Positions 3,996-11,577 of a stretch of 64,000 nucleotides of DNA are shown here, piece after piece. The notes below the pieces were generated by a model that searched no databases, was not told where the DNA came from, and saw only the letters and a list, made by a program, of their open reading frames with translations. Made by a program: the position numbers and the translations under genes. Source of the DNA: an uncultured Desulfospira sp. (lineage in GTDB: Bacteria > Desulfobacterota > Desulfobacteria > Desulfobacterales > Desulfobacteraceae); contig OY760175.1 of the NCBI GenBank assembly GCA_963663165.1, positions 1,248,001 through 1,312,000 on the forward strand, read 5' to 3'. The first letter of the stretch is position 1. Each line of letters begins with the position of its first letter.

Positions 3996-4334
3996 TTGAG
4001 CACCAACAGCTTAGAGACCACGGATATCTTCAGGGGAGCGTTTTACCTTTGCATGGGAGGTGATCTGGCCGAGATCCGGATGAACCACCGGCAGATTGCA
4101 TCCTTTATGTTTGCAGGTCCGGACCTGGCCAAACATGACAAGGCCTATGTCAACGGCCATGCCCTGGTCAACCCCGTGCAGTTCAGGCAGGCGCTGAACC
4201 ACCTGCGGGATATCCTATTTACGAGATTGAGACAAGGAAGATACGAGAATGATAGAACAAGTAAGGATCGACACCATCAAAACCAGTGTGGACCTTGTGG
4301 CCTATATCGGACAGGCCACCGGAGCCGCATTTAA
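3996..4334 (+). CDS. Small hypothetical protein upstream of the primase
   Basis: Strong RBS AAGGAGGT before a TTG start; overlaps the primase start. Confidence 0.6.
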   Translation: MSTNSLETTDIFRGAFYLCMGGDLAEIRMNHRQIASFMFAGPDLAKHDKAYVNGHALVNPVQFRQALNHLRDILFTRLRQGRYENDRTSKDRHHQNQCGPCGLYRTGHRSRI

Positions 4335-5010
4335 AAAGAACGGCAAGGGGTATGTATGCCGGTGCCCGTTCCCGGACCACGAAGACAAGACCCCGTCCTT
4401 TGTGGTTACTCCCCATGAGAACCTTTGGAACTGCTTTGGCTGCGGCAGGGGCGGTGATGTGTTTGAGTTTGACCGCCTGTATTTTAGCCTGGACTTCAAG
4501 GCATCGGTTCAAAAGCACGAATCCGTTGCCTCGTCCCCAAAGAAGGCAGTTAAAAAGAAAAAGGCCCCAGGCTCAGACAAGGCCCTGACCGTCAAAGAGC
4601 AAAAACTTCTGACCCGAGTGGTATCCTATTACCAGCACAGCTTTGGCGAAGATCCCAAGGGGATGGCCTATCTGAAAACCAGAGGGATCAGAGAAAATCA
4701 ATCGTTCTCGGATTTTGGTGCAGGCTTTGCCAACGGCACCCTGCTCAACATCCTTCCCGAAGATACCGACATTATCAACTCCTTAAAAAAGATCGGGATA
4801 TTGAACAGCCGGGGCAAAGAGGTGTTCATCAACTGCGTGGTGTTCCCGCTGTATGATGACAAGGGATCTGTGGTGAATCTCTATGGCCGGAACATTGACG
4901 ACGGCTGTAGGATCAAGCATTTGTATTTGCCAGGCAAACGCAACGGTCTTGTGAACCGCCAGGCGGCCAAACGGTCCCAGACTTTATACCATCAAAAACG
5001 CCCGGTATGA
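4249..5010 (+). pseudogene. DnaG-like primase (CHC2 zinc finger plus N-terminal catalytic core), truncated before the Toprim domain
   Basis: CPFPDHEDKTPSF...WNCFGCGRGGDVF and VVFPLYD...NLYGR...HLYLPG; primase-like sequence stops at ~4984. Confidence 0.85.
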
Positions 5011-5857
5011 GCTAAGGGCGTTCATCACCTTTATGGCCAAAGAAACGCCCCCGACCCTGGACAACCTGACACGGGAGATCTTGTATGAGTACCAGCAGGA
5101 GCTGGCCTTCAGAGTCTCTTCCAGGGGTAAGCTGTTGAGCCTTCGAACCCAGGGGCAGCGCCTTGGGGTGATCAAATCTTTTACCCGGTATTTAAAGGAA
5201 CATGATTATATGATCCTGGATCCGGGGGATGCCATCAGGTTGCCAAAGACACCCAAGCGTCTGCCAAAGGTGATCCTGAACACTATGGAACTTAAAAAGA
5301 TCATGCAGGCGGCGGACATCCGGACAACCCGGGGTTACAGAAACCGGGTGATCCTGGAGATCCTCTATGATACAGCCATCCGACGATCGGAACTTGCCGG
5401 CATTAAGATCAATAACCTTGATCTGCACTCAGGCTTTATCCATGTTCACGGCAAAGGTGATAAAGATCGTGTGGTGCCGGTGAGTGACCGGGTCAGCCGC
5501 CTGATTGAAAATTATATCGTGATGGTACGTTCGGGATACATTCAGGGGAAGGACACCGGCCACCTGGTCCTGAACCGGTGGGGAGAACAAATGGATCCCA
5601 ACGCCATATGGGCGGTGGTCAAACGATGTGCAGACCTGGCCGGGATCAGAAAGAACGTCTCCACCCACACGTTCCGGCACACCTGTGCCACCCACATGCT
5701 TAAAAACGGTGCCCCGGTCCGGCATATCCAGGAGATGCTGGGCCATGAATCGTTGGAATCCACGCAAGTTTACACCCGGGTGACCATCAACGACCTAAAG
5801 GAGATCCACGCCAAATACCATCCGGGAGAGAAAAAAGGGAATACCTCCACGCATTGA
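4985..5857 (+). CDS. XerD-like tyrosine recombinase, N-terminally truncated by a deletion (first in-frame ATG at 5033)
   Basis: LYDTAIRRSEL, HGKGDKDRVVP, HTFRHTCATH, LGHESLESTQVY; the frame extends upstream as YTIKNARYELRAF. Confidence 0.9.
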   Translation, partial: YTIKNARYELRAFITFMAKETPPTLDNLTREILYEYQQELAFRVSSRGKLLSLRTQGQRLGVIKSFTRYLKEHDYMILDPGDAIRLPKTPKRLPKVILNTMELKKIMQAADIRTTRGYRNRVILEILYDTAIRRSELAGIKINNLDLHSGFIHVHGKGDKDRVVPVSDRVSRLIENYIVMVRSGYIQGKDTGHLVLNRWGEQMDPNAIWAVVKRCADLAGIRKNVSTHTFRHTCATHMLKNGAPVRHIQEMLGHESLESTQVYTRVTINDLKEIHAKYHPGEKKGNTSTH

Positions 5858-5953
5858 CATTGCCAGACTTATGGGTAAATATGGGTAAATTTATGGATAT
5901 TTAATAAGGATGGCCAATGTTGAATCCTAGGATAAAAATCACACCCGAAATCT
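5553..5953 (+). repeat. 401-bp tandem duplication, copy 1 (recombinase 3' end plus fic 5' end); copy 2 is 5954-5996 plus 10208-10564
   Basis: Near-identical copies; differences include TGG>TAG, AAT>AAC and a 1-nt indel. Confidence 0.9.
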
Positions 5954-6134
5954 ACACCGGCCACCTGGTCCTGAACCGGTAGGGAGAACAAATGGATGAG
6001 AATGGTCACAGAAAATCATGGAAAAATTGAAGATAATTTGCAAGATATGTCAGGTTTGAGGCAGAAGTTCCCTTGTTTATCTCGCAAATAATCGTGAAAC
6101 TCCTGCCTCCCCACCCAATAACAGGGCAGGAGAT

Positions 6135-6722
6135 ATGCTATCAGAAGTTCTAAAAAGCGAAAGTCTTTTTTGGAATCTATACAAAATAGATCTGGCAACA
6201 GCCGAACGTTATAGACAGATGAAGTGCCCCCACTGCCAGGGACCGTTGTATTATGCCAATTATCTGCGCAAACCCAGGGGGGAGCCTGAAGGGTTGTCTG
6301 AAGAATGTTTTTTACAATTCAGTTTATGCTGCGGAAGGGAAGGCTGCCGACGGCGTTTGATCCCGCCAACCTGCCGTTTCCTTGGTAAAAACATTTACTG
6401 GTATGCGGCCATTCTGACGATTGTGTCCGACTGGCAGAACCAATCTGTAGGTATCACGATGTCCAGGTTTGCTGAAACAATCGGTATCTCCCGCAACACC
6501 CTTAGACGCTGGGTCGGTTTGTTTAAAGAAATATTTCCAACAAGCGCTCAATGGAAGAAAATCCGGGGCCGAGTGCCTGCAAGCGTGAAAAATGACAGTC
6601 TTCCGGCAAGTTTGGTCAACTTCTATCTGCATCAACAGGCATCCATCAAAGAAACGTTGATCTCCTGTTTGTCATTCTTGTCTCAAGGCAATGAAATATC
6701 ACAAAAAATAAGGGCCGGGTAA
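6135..6722 (+). CDS. Zn-finger plus HTH transposon accessory protein (DUF6431-like)
   Basis: CPHCQG...CCGREGCRRR and IGISRNTLRRW. Confidence 0.7.
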   Translation: MLSEVLKSESLFWNLYKIDLATAERYRQMKCPHCQGPLYYANYLRKPRGEPEGLSEECFLQFSLCCGREGCRRRLIPPTCRFLGKNIYWYAAILTIVSDWQNQSVGITMSRFAETIGISRNTLRRWVGLFKEIFPTSAQWKKIRGRVPASVKNDSLPASLVNFYLHQQASIKETLISCLSFLSQGNEISQKIRAG

Positions 6723-6837
6723 TCTCACGCAGAAGATGGGCGTGGCCTTGGGCGATCAACTGTTCTATCAAAGGGGCCGGGATTTTTATCAGCATTCCGC
6801 TGAAAATTTTAACTTAAAATTGAAAGGACCCCGGCCT

Positions 6838-8283
6838 ATGAACAGTAAAAACCAAAGTCCGGTTGATAAATGGGCTTTGTTTCGCTTCTCAGTCGTTGGT
6901 GGTTTGCTGGCAAATCCGCCGGCCAAGGGTGAGCTGCGTAAGGAACTGGAAAAGCTTTCCAATCAGATTTACACCCATCCCATCACGAACGAATCGACGG
7001 TATTTCATTTTTCAACTATTGAAAGCTGGTATTACAAGGCAAAAAATGCCCAGGACCCCATCATTGCTTTAGGACGGAAAGTTCGTTCAGACTATGGCGG
7101 TTCAATTGTATTCACGCCTGAACTGATCCGGATGCTGGGCAGACAATACCGGACCTATCCGAACTGGAGCTACAAACTGCACGCAGATAATTTCGCAGCA
7201 GAACTTCAAGAAAAAGCCAATTCAGTATCGATACCATCCTATGCCAGTGTCCGGCGGCGGATGGTCGAAAGAGGGTGGACCAGGAAACCCTCAGCCAAGA
7301 AAAAACAGACAGCGGGCATGAAAACTGCCGCAACGCGGTTCGAAAGCCATGAGATCCGTGGATATGAAGCAGAATGTGTTCACAGCCTGTGGCATCTGGA
7401 TTTTCATGAAGGCAGTCTGCGGGTGGTGGATAACAACGGTAACTGGTATACGCCCAAAGCCTTATGTATTCTTGACGACCACTCCCGCCTGTGCTGCCAC
7501 ATCCAATGGTATTCAGGAGAAACCACCCAGGATTTGATTCATGGATTGACCCAGGCCTTTTTCAAAAGGGGGCTTCCCAGGGCACTGATGACGGACAACG
7601 GATCTGCCATGACCTCCCATGAGTTTTGCAACGGGCTTAAGAAAACAGGGATACTTCATGAAACGACATTGCCCTACAGCCCTTATCAAAACGGTAAGCA
7701 GGAAGCCTTTTGGGGCACCCTTGAAGGCAGATTGATGGCCATGCTGACCCGGGTGGACCCTCTGACACTGGAATATCTCAATCACCGCAGTCAGGCTTGG
7801 GTCGAGATGGAATATAACAAAACCAGGCATAGTGACATCGGCACATCTCCTGTTCAACGCATGCTTGAAGGCAAAGATGTTTCCCGGCCGGCACCGGATG
7901 AAGAACAATTACGTTTCGCCTTTACAGTTTGCGAAGTCAGAAATCAGCGCAAGTCTGACGGTACCGTGTCCATCAACGGGGTAAGATTTGAGATCCCTTC
8001 CCGGTTTCACCATATCCCTCGGTTACATGTCTGCTTTGCCAATTGGGATAAATCCATGGCCTGGCTCATGGACCAGAGAACCGGCAAACAGATTGCGCCG
8101 ATCTACCCCCAAGACAAAATCAAAAATGCTTCAGGAAAACGAAAGATCAAGTCGAGACCTGAACATACCATTCTACCGGATGAAACATTGAAAGAATCCG
8201 AGCCTGCATTATTAAGAAAACTGATGGCCGAGTATGCCCAAAGCGGCATGCCCCCAGCCTATCTGCCCAAAGGAGAATCATGA
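6838..8283 (+). CDS. DDE transposase/integrase (rve core, Mu/IS481-like)
   Basis: LWHLDFH, ILDDHSR, MTDNGSAM, PYSPYQNGKQEAFW; C-terminal DGTVSINGVRFE. The track ORF starts at 6736. Confidence 0.9.
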   Translation: MNSKNQSPVDKWALFRFSVVGGLLANPPAKGELRKELEKLSNQIYTHPITNESTVFHFSTIESWYYKAKNAQDPIIALGRKVRSDYGGSIVFTPELIRMLGRQYRTYPNWSYKLHADNFAAELQEKANSVSIPSYASVRRRMVERGWTRKPSAKKKQTAGMKTAATRFESHEIRGYEAECVHSLWHLDFHEGSLRVVDNNGNWYTPKALCILDDHSRLCCHIQWYSGETTQDLIHGLTQAFFKRGLPRALMTDNGSAMTSHEFCNGLKKTGILHETTLPYSPYQNGKQEAFWGTLEGRLMAMLTRVDPLTLEYLNHRSQAWVEMEYNKTRHSDIGTSPVQRMLEGKDVSRPAPDEEQLRFAFTVCEVRNQRKSDGTVSINGVRFEIPSRFHHIPRLHVCFANWDKSMAWLMDQRTGKQIAPIYPQDKIKNASGKRKIKSRPEHTILPDETLKESEPALLRKLMAEYAQSGMPPAYLPKGES

Positions 8284-9107
8284 ACAACAAACAGCTTCTG
8301 GCTTATTACGGCCTTAAATGGAATCCTTTTTTGTCCAATATCCCCGTGGAGGCTTTATGGCATCCGCCATTGATGAACAGTTTTATTTTTCGTCTTGAGA
8401 ATATGACCCTGAACGGGGGCTTTGCTTTGATCAGCGGGGACCCTGGCCTTGGCAAATCCAAGGCGTTGCAGATGATTGCCCAAAAGTTCGGTAAACTTGA
8501 CGAGGTAGTTGTCGGGGTAATGGAACGTCCCCAAAGCAGTGTCGGAGACTTTTACCGGGAAATGGGAGTTTTGTTTGGTGTCAATTTAAGCCCTGCCAAC
8601 CGGTATGGCGGGTTCAAGGATCTTCGGGAGCGCTGGAGGCATCATGTAAAAACCACCTTGTTCCGGCCCATCCTGCTCATAGATGAAGCCCAGGAGATGC
8701 TGACCGGATGCTTAAATGAACTGCGTTTGTTGAACAGCGCGGACTTTGACTCCCAAAACCTGTTGACCACCGTGATTTGCGGCGATGACCGGCTCCCGGA
8801 ACGGTTCAGATCAAGATCCCTGGTATCGCTGGGAAGCCGGATGCAGTTCCGGTTGACGCTGCTTCCCTATGTCCGGGATGACCTGCTGGATTACATGGAT
8901 CACAGCCTGAACCAGGCCGGCGCCCCGCACTTAATGACGAAAACTCTGATCAGGACCCTTGCAGACCATTGCGCCGGCAACCTGCGGGTTCTTAACAGTA
9001 TGGCCGCAGACCTGCTGGCTGCGGGGATTGAGAAAGAACTCAATCAATTGGACGAAAAACTTTTTATGGAAGTCTATTCCAGACAGCCGCCCAATAAAAA
9101 ATCATAG
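8280..9107 (+). CDS. ExeA/TniB-like AAA+ ATPase (transposition helper)
   Basis: Walker A GDPGLGKS, Walker B ILLIDEAQ; ATGA overlap with the transposase. Confidence 0.9.
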   Translation: MNNKQLLAYYGLKWNPFLSNIPVEALWHPPLMNSFIFRLENMTLNGGFALISGDPGLGKSKALQMIAQKFGKLDEVVVGVMERPQSSVGDFYREMGVLFGVNLSPANRYGGFKDLRERWRHHVKTTLFRPILLIDEAQEMLTGCLNELRLLNSADFDSQNLLTTVICGDDRLPERFRSRSLVSLGSRMQFRLTLLPYVRDDLLDYMDHSLNQAGAPHLMTKTLIRTLADHCAGNLRVLNSMAADLLAAGIEKELNQLDEKLFMEVYSRQPPNKKS

Positions 9108-9116
9108 GAGAACAAT

Positions 9117-9299
9117 ATGGGTATTTATGATGATCCGGACATGAAACTGGAAGAAATTACACAGGAATTGGAACATTTTATCCTGGATATGGTCCTTGCC
9201 GGACTTGAAAACTTGAATATGGAATATCGGGCCTTCAGGCAATTCCAGAAACAAAGGCTCACGGAAAAGAACCGTCATAAAGAACACGAGCCGTTTTAA
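9117..9299 (+). CDS. Small hypothetical protein
   Basis: RBS AGGAG, 60 aa, co-oriented within the transposon. Confidence 0.55.
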   Translation: MGIYDDPDMKLEEITQELEHFILDMVLAGLENLNMEYRAFRQFQKQRLTEKNRHKEHEPF

Positions 9300-9336
9300 A
9301 CGTACGCCCGGACTCTAAAGGTCCGGGCCTGCCTCA

Positions 9337-10125
9337 ATGGAAAAAATACTATGGAAAATCGGCAATTATTTTAAGCACCGCTTCAGCCTGGCAGTTCTTG
9401 ATGAAATTAAGGGCCGGTGGCCCGTTCTCCCCTCTTGTAAAAACATCCCTTATCTTAAAGCTGAAAATGCCGGAGGAAGGCACATCCTGATCAGACCTGA
9501 TCCTGTTATTGAGCCTTATTATTTTCTTGCCGACGATTTAAACATTGACCTGCTTATCCGGCATCATCAATCCATATCAAACCGCTTTAAACCAGGCAGG
9601 ATGGTTATGGAAACATCTCCCGGCAATTATCAAATTTGGATTCACAGTGACCGTCCGTTAAGCCTTCCCGAAAAAAAGTATTGGTTGGAAAACATGCACA
9701 GTGATCCCGGCGCCGACCCGAAAAACAGGTGGGGCAGATGCCCCGGGTTCAGGAACAGAAAAGCAAAACATAGAACGCCTTCAGGACAATACCCTTTGGC
9801 AAAGCTATTATGGGTGGACTGGAAATGCCAGGCTATTGTCCCTGAAATAGAATTATCCTCCCGACCTCAAGAAGTCTTTTCCCATCAACCCCGGGGGGGA
9901 GTGTGCCATAACGGTAATATTTCCCGCTCCCTCTATGATAAGGGTGACGAATCTGCCACTGATTTTGCATATGCTCTGGCCCTCTATAGAAGAGGTTTTT
10001 CACGAATGGAAATTTACAATCGCATTATCAATGAAAGGCAGGATTGGATTAATCATGCGGATGAACGAAAAAAAACACAGTATCTGATCAGGACATTACA
10101 AAAAGCTGAAAAAATTATCAGTTAA
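9337..10125 (+). CDS. RepB'-type (RSF1010-like, AEP superfamily) DNA primase
   Basis: FLADDL, METSPGNYQIW, DPGAD...RCPGFRNRKAKH; C-terminal helical DESATDFAYA. Confidence 0.75.
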   Translation: MEKILWKIGNYFKHRFSLAVLDEIKGRWPVLPSCKNIPYLKAENAGGRHILIRPDPVIEPYYFLADDLNIDLLIRHHQSISNRFKPGRMVMETSPGNYQIWIHSDRPLSLPEKKYWLENMHSDPGADPKNRWGRCPGFRNRKAKHRTPSGQYPLAKLLWVDWKCQAIVPEIELSSRPQEVFSHQPRGGVCHNGNISRSLYDKGDESATDFAYALALYRRGFSRMEIYNRIINERQDWINHADERKKTQYLIRTLQKAEKIIS

Positions 10126-10202
10126 AATCGGGCTCTCTTGGCCTCCGGGAAAGCCCTTATTTACCATGAAACGTTGTCCATGAATTATCGTGATTGCTCT
10201 CA

Positions 10203-10469
10203 ATGGATCCCAACGCCATATGGGCGGTGGTCAAACGATGTGCAGACCTGGCCGGGATCAGAAAGAACGTCTCCACCCACACGTTCCGGCACACCTGTGC
10301 CACCCACATGCTTAAAAACGGTGCCCCGGTCCGGCATATCCAGGAGATGCTGGGCCATGAATCGTTGGAATCCACGCAAGTTTACACCCGGGTGACCATC
10401 AACGACCTAAAGGAGATCCACGCCAAATACCATCCGGGAGAGAAAAAAGGGAACACCTCCACGCATTGA
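10203..10469 (+). pseudogene. Duplicated 3' fragment of the tyrosine recombinase
   Basis: Same translation as 5591-5857. Confidence 0.9.
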
Positions 10470-10527
10470 CATTGCCAGACTTATGGGTAAATATGGGTAA
10501 ATTTATGGATATTTAAAAGGATGGCCA

Positions 10528-11577
10528 ATGTTGAATCCTAGGATAAAAATCACACCCGAAATCTTAAACCTCATTGCCAAAATAGACGAGTTCAAAGGGG
10601 AATGGAAAGCCATCGGGAACCTGGCTCCTGATCGCCTCAATGCCCTTAAGCATGTGGCAACCATAGAATCCATAGGGTCTTCCACGCGGATCGAAGGGGT
10701 TAAACTGAGTGATCAGGAGATCGAGTTGCTGTTATCCGGCCTGGACAAAAAGTCTTTTGGCTCCAGGGATGAACAGGAGGTGGCCGGATATGCTGATGTA
10801 ATGAACACCGTGTTTGAATCCTACGGGCAGATCCCGTTTACTGAAAACTATATCAGGCAACTGCACAAGATGCTGCTCCAATACAGCTCAAAGGATACAC
10901 GGCACCGGGGGGAGTATAAAAAGATGACCAATCATGTGGAGGCGTTTGACCATGACGGGAAAAGCCTGGATGTCATCTTTGAAACATCCTCGCCCTTTGA
11001 TACACCCAGAGACATGGAAGAGCTGCTGGCATGGACCAGTAAGCAGTTAAAAGAAAAAGAGCTTCATCCCCTGTTAACCATATCTGTATTTATCGTTCAT
11101 TTTTTGGCCATCCACCCGTTCCAGGACGGCAACGGAAGGCTATCAAGAGTGCTGACAGCCCTGCTGCTGTTGAAAGAGGGATATCTGTACGTTCCCTACA
11201 GTTCCCTGGAAAGTGTGCTTGAAAAAAACAAGGACAACTATTACCTGGCCTTGAGACGGACCCAGGGTTCGTTTAAATCTGAAGAACCGGACTACACTCC
11301 CTGGCTTACCTTCTTCCTGGACGCCCTTGACGCACAAAAGGAAATGCTGGCCCGGAAGATCGAAAGGGAGAACGTTTTTACGAAACTGCCCAAGCTATCC
11401 CGGCAGATCATTGAACTGGTGAAGGATCATGGAGAGCTGTCCATATCAGAGATCGAATCCATCACAGGAGCCAACCGAAACACCATAAAGAAAAAGCTGG
11501 CAGAACTTGTGCGGGACAACCACCTGACCAGGCAGGGCCAGGGTAAAGGGACCCGGTATGTTCCTGGTATAAAATAG
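10528..11577 (+). CDS. Fic-family protein with C-terminal HTH
   Basis: HPFQDGNGRLSR catalytic motif; SSTRIEG inhibitory motif. Confidence 0.92.
   Translation: MLNPRIKITPEILNLIAKIDEFKGEWKAIGNLAPDRLNALKHVATIESIGSSTRIEGVKLSDQEIELLLSGLDKKSFGSRDEQEVAGYADVMNTVFESYGQIPFTENYIRQLHKMLLQYSSKDTRHRGEYKKMTNHVEAFDHDGKSLDVIFETSSPFDTPRDMEELLAWTSKQLKEKELHPLLTISVFIVHFLAIHPFQDGNGRLSRVLTALLLLKEGYLYVPYSSLESVLEKNKDNYYLALRRTQGSFKSEEPDYTPWLTFFLDALDAQKEMLARKIERENVFTKLPKLSRQIIELVKDHGELSISEIESITGANRNTIKKKLAELVRDNHLTRQGQGKGTRYVPGIK

Follow-up and report, generated by a model that had tools for sequence, protein, structure and literature searches.

A compact Tn6049-family transposon of an uncultured Desulfospira sp. encodes a predicted RepB'-type primase

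The genome of an uncultured Desulfospira sp. (GenBank assembly GCA_963663165.1, contig OY760175.1) contains a compact transposon that carries a predicted primase gene next to its transposition genes. We analysed a 64,000-nucleotide stretch of this contig (positions 1,248,001 to 1,312,000), hereafter the window, to whose first nucleotide all positions below refer unless stated otherwise. Reading of the sequence and of its list of open reading frames (ORFs) delimited one 4206-bp element at 5997-10202, with five ORFs on the + strand. The left end of the element reads TGAGAATGG and the right end GATTGCTCTCA, giving the outline TGAGA...TCTCA. The terminal inverted repeats, located at 5997..6026 (+ strand, TGAGAATGGTCACAGAAAATCATGGA..., the start base being common to all copies) and at 10173..10202 (- strand, reading TGAGAGCAATCACGATAATTCATGGA... 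on the reverse strand), are imperfect; by eye, ~20 of their 30 outermost positions agree. A TCATGG motif is present as a single copy at the left end and, on the reverse strand, as two copies at the right end. Sequence and copy comparison identified the target-site duplication as ATGGA, with its left copy at 5992..5996 and its right copy at 10203..10207. An initial annotation, made from the letters alone, had described the TG...CA ends, the imperfect repeats with TCATGG, the ATGGA duplication and the five co-oriented ORFs, and each of these features was seen in the sequence.

To define the element further, we searched the genome of origin, which is represented by one 6.74-Mb contig, at the DNA level. 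Ten full-length copies and one copy split by other insertions were found. Three of the full-length copies are 100% identical, one is 98% identical and six are 97% identical, one of the latter crossing the contig origin. All copies start and stop at identical bases, and contigs assembled from four public sequencing runs break at 5996/5997 and at 10202, confirming the exact boundaries first assigned. The contig depth within the element was ~10x the flank depth in the four runs, and all five ORFs are open in both diverged copies compared (97% and 98%). The copy number and identity, the shared boundaries, the contig breaks and the depth together show a genuine mobile element with recent activity. 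Of the 11 copies, ten have the + orientation on the contig and occur on either side of the GC-skew turning points (~3.95 and 0.7 Mb), so this strand bias is independent of replication direction. The dnaA gene is located at 2.12 Mb, away from both turning points. The genome also contains three copies of a non-coding 373-bp miniature inverted-repeat transposable element whose ends are near-identical to those of the transposon (TGAGAGTGATCACGATATTTGATGGA...). These copies are all outside the window (C1:5266572-5266944, 2726987-2727359 and 4409221-4409593), and each is flanked by a perfect 5-bp duplication (TCTGA, CTTGT and CAGAT). The miniature element is probably moved in trans by the transposase of the transposon.

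Target-site duplications were read from the flanks of all copies, and empty sites were taken from the own genome and from two genomes of the same genus. Among the ten full-length copies, the duplication is 5 bp in four, 6 bp in three (ACAAAT, ATATCC and CGATAG), 4 bp in one and 3 bp in two (ACA and GCA). The duplications of three copies were verified against empty sites, and for copies 1, 5 and 9 the search yielded no usable empty site. A reading of the three odd junctions as a 5-bp duplication with a single additional base was rejected, as comparison with unoccupied sites of the own genome and of genome G001 showed a plain 6-bp duplication for one of them; the remaining two, on re-reading of their flanks, are compatible with a 6-bp duplication. 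Further copies with other duplications, for which the initial annotation had proposed a search, were found. The 5-bp duplication is correct for the window copy but is not a family constant, and it could not be upheld as the fixed trait by which the element had been likened to Mu and Tn7, whose duplications are fixed at 5 bp.

The first three genes make up the transposition module. ORF1 (6135..6722, + strand) encodes a 195-aa protein in which Pfam and alignment indicate a Zn-ribbon (C31, C34, C65/C66 and C71) and a helix-turn-helix. The Cys pairs are conserved, and the Pfam matches to helix-turn-helix families were weak only (E ~0.009). Neither the single ORF1 protein nor its profile had a sequence match in the PDB, and its AlphaFold2 model (mean predicted local distance difference test score 60) returned no Foldseek hit against the PDB at E 0.001 or better. 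ORF1 is the counterpart of the protein listed as 'Mob prot' or small 'transposase' in Tn6049, a named transposon that is discussed further below. ORF2 (6736..8283, + strand) encodes a DDE transposase (Pfam rve, E 3e-13) whose true start is probably the conserved M34 at 6835, judging by the alignment. The catalytic residues D189, D254 and E290, counted from M34, are invariant. The nearest NCBIfam model, IS481, was matched at 106 bits, below its cut-off of 224 for membership, and the five genes of the element differ from the single-gene layout of the IS481 family. When the transposase profile was compared with solved structures, it matched retroviral integrase cores and, in its N-terminal part, TnsB (E 2e-4).

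ORF3 (8280..9107, + strand) encodes an ExeA/GspA-like and MuB-like AAA+ ATPase (Pfam AAA_22, E 1e-16). The best solved relative of its profile was the phage Mu target DNA activator B, MuB (8XVB, E 2.4e-13), followed by Cdc6/ORC and by weaker TnsC matches. The match to AAA_22 rather than to IstB_IS21 sets the protein apart from the IS21 family. The 60-aa ORF4 (9117..9299, + strand) is conserved in closer relatives only, has no family match, and does not resemble the small ORF found fourth in Tn6049 and in the PsJN copy. No matches to TnsA, TniQ/TnsD, TnsE or a resolvase were found in the five ORFs with Pfam and NCBIfam. The transposition module is thus a Zn-ribbon/HTH protein, an IS481/Mu-type rve transposase and a MuB-like AAA+ ATPase. 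The initial description is correct in that the element is a small, mobile DDE transposon whose transposase and ATPase form a Mu-type pair, whereas the wider label of a Mu/Tn7/Tn5053-like element holds for this pair and for the TG...CA ends but not for TnsA, TniQ, a resolvase or a fixed 5-bp duplication. An 8-bp inverted repeat (CTCCTGCC...GGCAGGAG, 6100..6132, + strand) lies just 5' of ORF1 and spans the likely ribosome site. Promoter and terminator scans of the element returned sites no commoner than in shuffles.

ORF5 (9337..10125, + strand) encodes a 262-aa protein with the catalytic and helix-bundle domains of RepB'-type primases, which belong to the archaeo-eukaryotic primase (AEP)-like enzymes. 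Its stop at 10125 lies 77 nt inside the right end and its frame is intact in 10/10 full-length copies, placing the gene within the element as originally described. Pfam detected the N-terminal RepB_primase domain at 56.7 bits (cut-off 24.3, E 3.8e-15) and the RepB_primase_C helix bundle at 32 bits (cut-off 26.1, E 1e-7), and the protein matched the solved RepB' of plasmid RSF1010 (PDB 3H20/3H25) at E 1e-11. Hidden Markov model and structure searches, as proposed in the initial annotation, thus bear out its assignment of ORF5. D66, D67, D123 and R134 of ORF5 align with D77, D78, D134 and R145 of RepB', which carry out nucleotidyl transfer according to the mutagenesis described in PMC8567376. 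The equivalents of these residues are invariant in 7/7 aligned relatives of 53-98% identity. The primase is also better conserved than the transposase, being 51-57% identical where the transposase is just 25-34% identical. Judged from its sequence, the primase looks competent, with its catalytic residues intact and under strong constraint. A 1148-base contig from run X5 matches the element only over a 181-bp stretch (9312-9492), from the hairpin loop described below to the first third of the primase, and has unrelated sequence on both sides. This contig may represent a fragment of the primase cassette or a recombinant form of it.

To examine the genes that accompany the primase in other genomes, we assembled a primase-centred set of loci with a profile of seven primases, taking one genome per species. 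A transposase and/or ATPase gene was present directly upstream of the primase and co-oriented with it in 54 of the 72 loci (both genes in 38, the transposase only in 10 and the ATPase only in 6). Neither was present in 18 loci, nine of which have <1500 nt of upstream sequence. The transposases beside these primases fall into two deep lineages, one of 16 loci that are 46-97% identical to the window's transposase and one of 32 loci that are 25-34% identical to it. Elements of the second lineage (L055-L057) encode a Zn-ribbon ORF, a transposase, an ATPase and a primase within 4028 bp, and have TGTT...AACA ends and 5-bp duplications in 3/3 copies.

A second, transposase-centred set was collected from metagenome contigs with a profile of twelve transposases, and 80 of the 588 confirmed loci were kept. 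At E <= 1e-5 the transposase family numbers at least 7898 proteins, and many metagenome contigs of 4 kb consist of one entire element of this family. ORF1 was present in 69/80 and the ATPase in 73/80 loci, and the order ORF1, transposase, ATPase recurs. As 25 of the 80 loci end too soon 3' of the ATPase, 55 were assessable for the gene that follows, here called slot 4. Co-oriented and directly after the ATPase, slot 4 holds a RepB' primase in 8/55, a primase with a DnaG Zn-ribbon and a Toprim domain in 5/55 and an AAA_25 protein with a C-terminal winged helix in 38/55, while the remaining 4/55 carry none of these three types; 22 proteins were classified by Pfam and the rest by local profiles built from those 22, which makes 17 rows circular. 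The only PDB match of the AAA_25 protein was the RepA helicase of RSF1010 (1G8Y, E 7e-11). With 51/55 loci occupied in this manner, the slot after the ATPase appears to be a family-wide place for replication-initiation proteins. Retention of the primase across homologs, a point raised by the initial annotation, therefore holds for 10/10 copies in the own genome but for just 8/55 assessable transposase relatives. Variable content of this slot had been named beforehand as evidence against the reading of the primase as part of the machinery, and formally the slot is variable, as only 8/55 loci carry the RepB' type. Since a DnaG-type primase or a RepA-like helicase occupies the slot in 43 of the remaining 47, this variability strengthens a role in replication rather than removing it.

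A GC-rich hairpin with a 9-bp stem (9306..9328; -11.8 kcal/mol, z -3.35) ends 8 nt 5' of the primase start. Among distinct 48-nt stretches 5' of the primase start in the relatives, 30/59 fold at <= -8 kcal/mol and 34/59 have z <= -2, compared with 3/88 controls upstream of the ATPase start and 7/59 controls within the primase gene at <= -8 kcal/mol. The stem sequences vary by primase clade (GCCCGGAC, GCGGAAGTGC, CAGGCAAAGGC, GACAGGCGG, GCCCCGGAG and others) but occupy a conserved position. RNAalifold gave no consensus pairs on a MAFFT alignment of 28 upstream regions, in which the stems do not line up. In relatives with a DnaG-type primase or a helicase, the gene for this protein abuts the ATPase gene and leaves no room for such a hairpin. 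The window hairpin has no T run and was not called by the terminator scan. The hairpin could be an ssi-like priming site or have a regulatory role, and it could act as a terminator in some elements. A second, weak hairpin 3' of the primase stop (10130..10156) is no better than shuffles (z -0.56). The 8 nt between the first hairpin and the primase ATG (9329-9336) contain no Shine-Dalgarno-like sequence, and a T/C-rich motif (CATCTCA, TTATCTC or TTTATCC) occupies the equivalent position in many relatives.

Quick trees of the transposases and primases were built to compare their histories. At least 10 changes of slot type are required on the transposase tree. On the primase tree, the transposon-borne primases form one clade (Shimodaira-Hasegawa-like approximate likelihood ratio test, SH-aLRT, 97) within which both transposase lineages are mixed. 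The primases of L035 and L037 are 77-78% identical to that of the window, whereas their transposases are just 48-49% identical. Together, these comparisons suggest that the primase and its adjacent GC-rich hairpin behave as a cassette that has moved between distant transposase lineages. At L047, an rve fragment and the primase are preceded by two tandem tyrosine recombinases. This locus may be composite, since insertion of recombinase trios into relatives of Tn6049 is reported in PMC3414803.

We tentatively propose, with slightly less than even confidence, that the primase acts on the element's own transposition intermediate, where it would prime DNA synthesis. Self-priming had been put forward in the initial annotation as a putative function, along with gap fill and replication as an excised circle. 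Transposition would give rise to an intermediate that needs replication, either a Mu-type strand-transfer fork or a copy-out product with one element strand displaced, and the primase of the element would start complementary-strand synthesis on it. Priming would probably occur at the hairpin beside the primase gene, as that by RepB' does at the ssiA and ssiB hairpins of RSF1010. The element would then bypass waiting for the host restart primosome on which phage Mu depends, and its relatives would meet this requirement with another primase or with a helicase.

Several observations weigh against this proposal. A Mu-type strand-transfer product can be primed on both strands from the 3'-OH ends of the target, so a primase is not logically required, and a primase alone cannot open duplex DNA. 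The same primase clade is found beside IS21-type genes (L062 and L076) and beside a tyrosine-recombinase trio (L058), suggesting that the role of the primase is not tied to one transposition chemistry. The order at L076 is primase, ParB_N protein, IstA and IstB, that at L062 is alike, and at L058 the primase lies directly 3' of the three tyrosine recombinases; the contigs of these three loci have no convincing terminal repeats, and the primase is a putative part of those elements. The hairpin is missing or more distant in 29/59 elements, is followed by a T run at L072 and L078 like an ordinary terminator, can form on either strand, and has flanks without a checkable match to the ssiA geometry. 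No end-to-end joints were seen in the assembled contigs of the four public runs, which drop rare forms and are silent on circles. Tn6049, of which PMC2864759 reports 12 copies in strain CH34, and 4/55 relatives are multicopy without a replication gene, indicating that this gene is dispensable for transposition as such.

Three other explanations were weighed against priming of the intermediate. The element may be a transient mini-replicon, in which an excised or copied-out double-stranded circle replicates briefly via the primase, or via the helicase in relatives, to give more integration-competent copies. Slot-4 proteins are homologous to two of the three IncQ replication proteins, RepB' and RepA, and the C-terminal winged helix of the helicase variants could bind an origin. 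The transposase core is nearest to IS481/IS3 models, families that use circles, and the IS21-type and tyrosine-recombinase genes that also adjoin the primase are potential circle makers. We nevertheless consider a mini-replicon unlikely: primase and helicase never occur together in one element, neither a RepC-type initiator nor iterons were seen in the 4.2 kb by repeat search and reading, with no tandem-repeat scan run, and the missing end-to-end joints count slightly against it, given that contigs drop rare forms. A similarly low probability attaches to the view that the primase and hairpin are cargo from conjugative elements, which would aid DNA entering as a single strand or merely hitch-hike and would have no role in transposition. 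The nearest non-transposon primases (L090-L092, 45-46% identity) do adjoin ssb, parA/parB and coupling-protein genes, the cassette moves among unrelated backbones, and Tn6049 manages without a primase. Ordinary cargo slots, in contrast, hold varied genes of benefit to the host, whereas 51/55 slots here hold a replication-initiation protein. The transposon-borne primases also form a clade apart from the conjugative ones, and the primase is intact in every full-length copy and more strongly conserved than the transposase.

The slot could also serve target selection. Its protein, which is placed like TnsD, TnsE or TniQ of Tn7 and Tn5053, would steer the MuB-like ATPase to forks or single-stranded DNA, with catalysis being secondary. 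The slot immediately follows the gene for the AAA+ regulator and its contents are exchanged as modules, as is known for the target selectors of Tn7, and all three types of occupant bind forked or single-stranded DNA by nature. Against this stand the invariant catalytic residues of the primase, the orientation of the insertions, which is unrelated to the replichores, and the presence of the primase beside IS21-type and tyrosine-recombinase genes that have no MuB-like partner. We therefore regard target selection as quite improbable, the least probable of the explanations considered.

The recruitment of DNA synthesis is the least understood step of replicative and copy-out transposition, and phage Mu needs the whole host restart pathway for its replication. 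If the primase does act on the transposition intermediate, a 4-kb element with its own primase, together with sister elements that carry another primase or a helicase, would form a minimal and genetically tractable system for the DNA-synthesis step. A broader proposal, which we regard as possible but doubtful, is that the Tn6049 family is a large and overlooked class of DDE transposons with its own replication-initiation module (RepB' plus hairpin, DnaG-type primase or RepA-like helicase), conferring a replication step independent of the host primosome or a short plasmid-like phase. Its primase and hairpin cassette would be exchangeable with other small mobile elements and would provide an evolutionary link between IncQ replication and transposition. 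In annotation, RepB-type primases and 'RepA' proteins of the AAA_25 type are commonly taken to mark plasmids, and in these lineages they lie inside chromosomal transposons.

The target of the insertion was a 401-bp tandem duplication, whose copies occupy 5553-5953 and 5954-5997 plus 10203-10564. The repeat spans the 3' part of a tyrosine-recombinase gene, the spacer and the initial codons of a Fic gene, and the contig depth across it is ~2x that of its flanks. The element is inserted 44 bp into the second repeat copy, sparing the first copy and thus leaving the recombinase gene (5033-5857) intact. In the short left piece of the second copy, a TGG is changed to TAG. Just upstream of the recombinase gene, a 253-aa ORF (4249-5010) combines a zinc ribbon of DnaG type with the N-terminal portion of the DnaG catalytic core and, by Pfam, lacks a Toprim domain. 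It looks like a truncated or unusual primase gene, apparently within another mobile region. Elsewhere in the genome, a separate repeat of ~4.5 kb is present in five near-identical copies, one of them at C1:5260948-5265491. Every copy contains a 268-aa reading frame with a match to the DnaA ATPase domain, as is seen for IstB-like proteins, and the repeat is probably an IS21-type element.

The element resembles Mu (MuA/MuB), Tn7 (TnsB-TnsC) and Tn5053 (TniA-TniB) in its rve transposase, in the AAA+ partner encoded just downstream and in its TG...CA ends. It differs from them in its total size of 4.2 kb, in its duplications of 3-6 bp, and in that no TnsA, TniQ/TnsD, TnsE or resolvase was found. 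It also encodes a primase, whereas Mu relies on the host primosome for its replication. Compared with RepB' of RSF1010, ORF5 has both domains, the three catalytic Asp residues and the Arg (by the account in PMC8567376), keeps an equivalent of R285, and has an aromatic residue at the position of W50. The two proteins are ~25-30% identical at most, and ORF5 is shorter (262 aa compared to 323 aa). No RepA, RepC or oriV iterons were found beside the primase, the absence of iterons resting on a repeat search and reading of the 4.2 kb, with no tandem-repeat scan run, and by Pfam the other four ORFs are transposition genes or have no assigned family, which sets the element apart from IncQ replicons. 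The nearest functional precedent that we found, by analogy, is IEE ('insertion sequence excision enhancer') of E. coli O157, described in a preprint (bioRxiv 10.1101/2023.06.07.543989) as a PrimPol-helicase that acts with the transposase on copy-out-paste-in elements, and which likewise would place an AEP enzyme in copy-out transposition. In contrast to ORF5, IEE is there a PrimPol fused to a helicase rather than a RepB'-type protein, is encoded outside the insertion sequence (IS), acts in trans on several IS families and promotes IS loss. No paper was found that describes a primase encoded in an IS-sized DDE transposon, in a search that left subscription journals, ISfinder and TnCentral outside its scope.

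The closest named relative is Tn6049. A protein search of plasmids recovered transposases 47% identical to that of the window in plasmids of C. metallidurans CH34 and in P. aeruginosa pHS87a. The Tn6049 locus of pMOL28 has the same first three genes within 3517 bp, with the ends TGTGCATAAGCA...TGCTCACGCACA, and tblastn gave identities of 32% for the small protein, 47% for the transposase and 50% for the ATPase, in the same order. The core of the window element therefore belongs to the Tn6049 family. According to PMC2864759 and PMC4739549, Tn6049 of Cupriavidus metallidurans CH34 is a 3.5-kb transposon with 12 copies, noted for a 'gspA' ATPase gene, and the latter source gives its ends as TGTGC...GCACA with a 4-bp repeat. 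Table S5 of PMC3414803 lists the related elements as 'Mob prot, TnpA, ATPase, UF'; the fourth protein differs per host group and its function is given there as unknown. In the passages and supplement of these three publications that bear on Tn6049 relatives, no replication proteins are identified in the fourth slot. The PGAP label of the Tn6049 transposase is 'IS481 family'. The window element and Tn6049 share their gene order, TG...CA ends, short duplications and multicopy state. Tn6049 differs in having neither a primase nor a helicase, and its fourth ORF, of 71-72 aa, is unlike anything in the window element. The initial statement that no characterised transposon has this architecture must therefore be narrowed: a named relative shares the first three genes, although Tn6049 is uncharacterised and lacks the primase. 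On the quick transposase tree, Tn6049 nests in a helicase-bearing clade (SH-aLRT 97), suggesting that it is a reduced form that lost its slot-4 gene. Collectively, these comparisons place the window element in a backbone family that is already named but uncharacterised, to which our analysis adds that the slot after the ATPase appears to hold a primase or a helicase in most of the assessable relatives.

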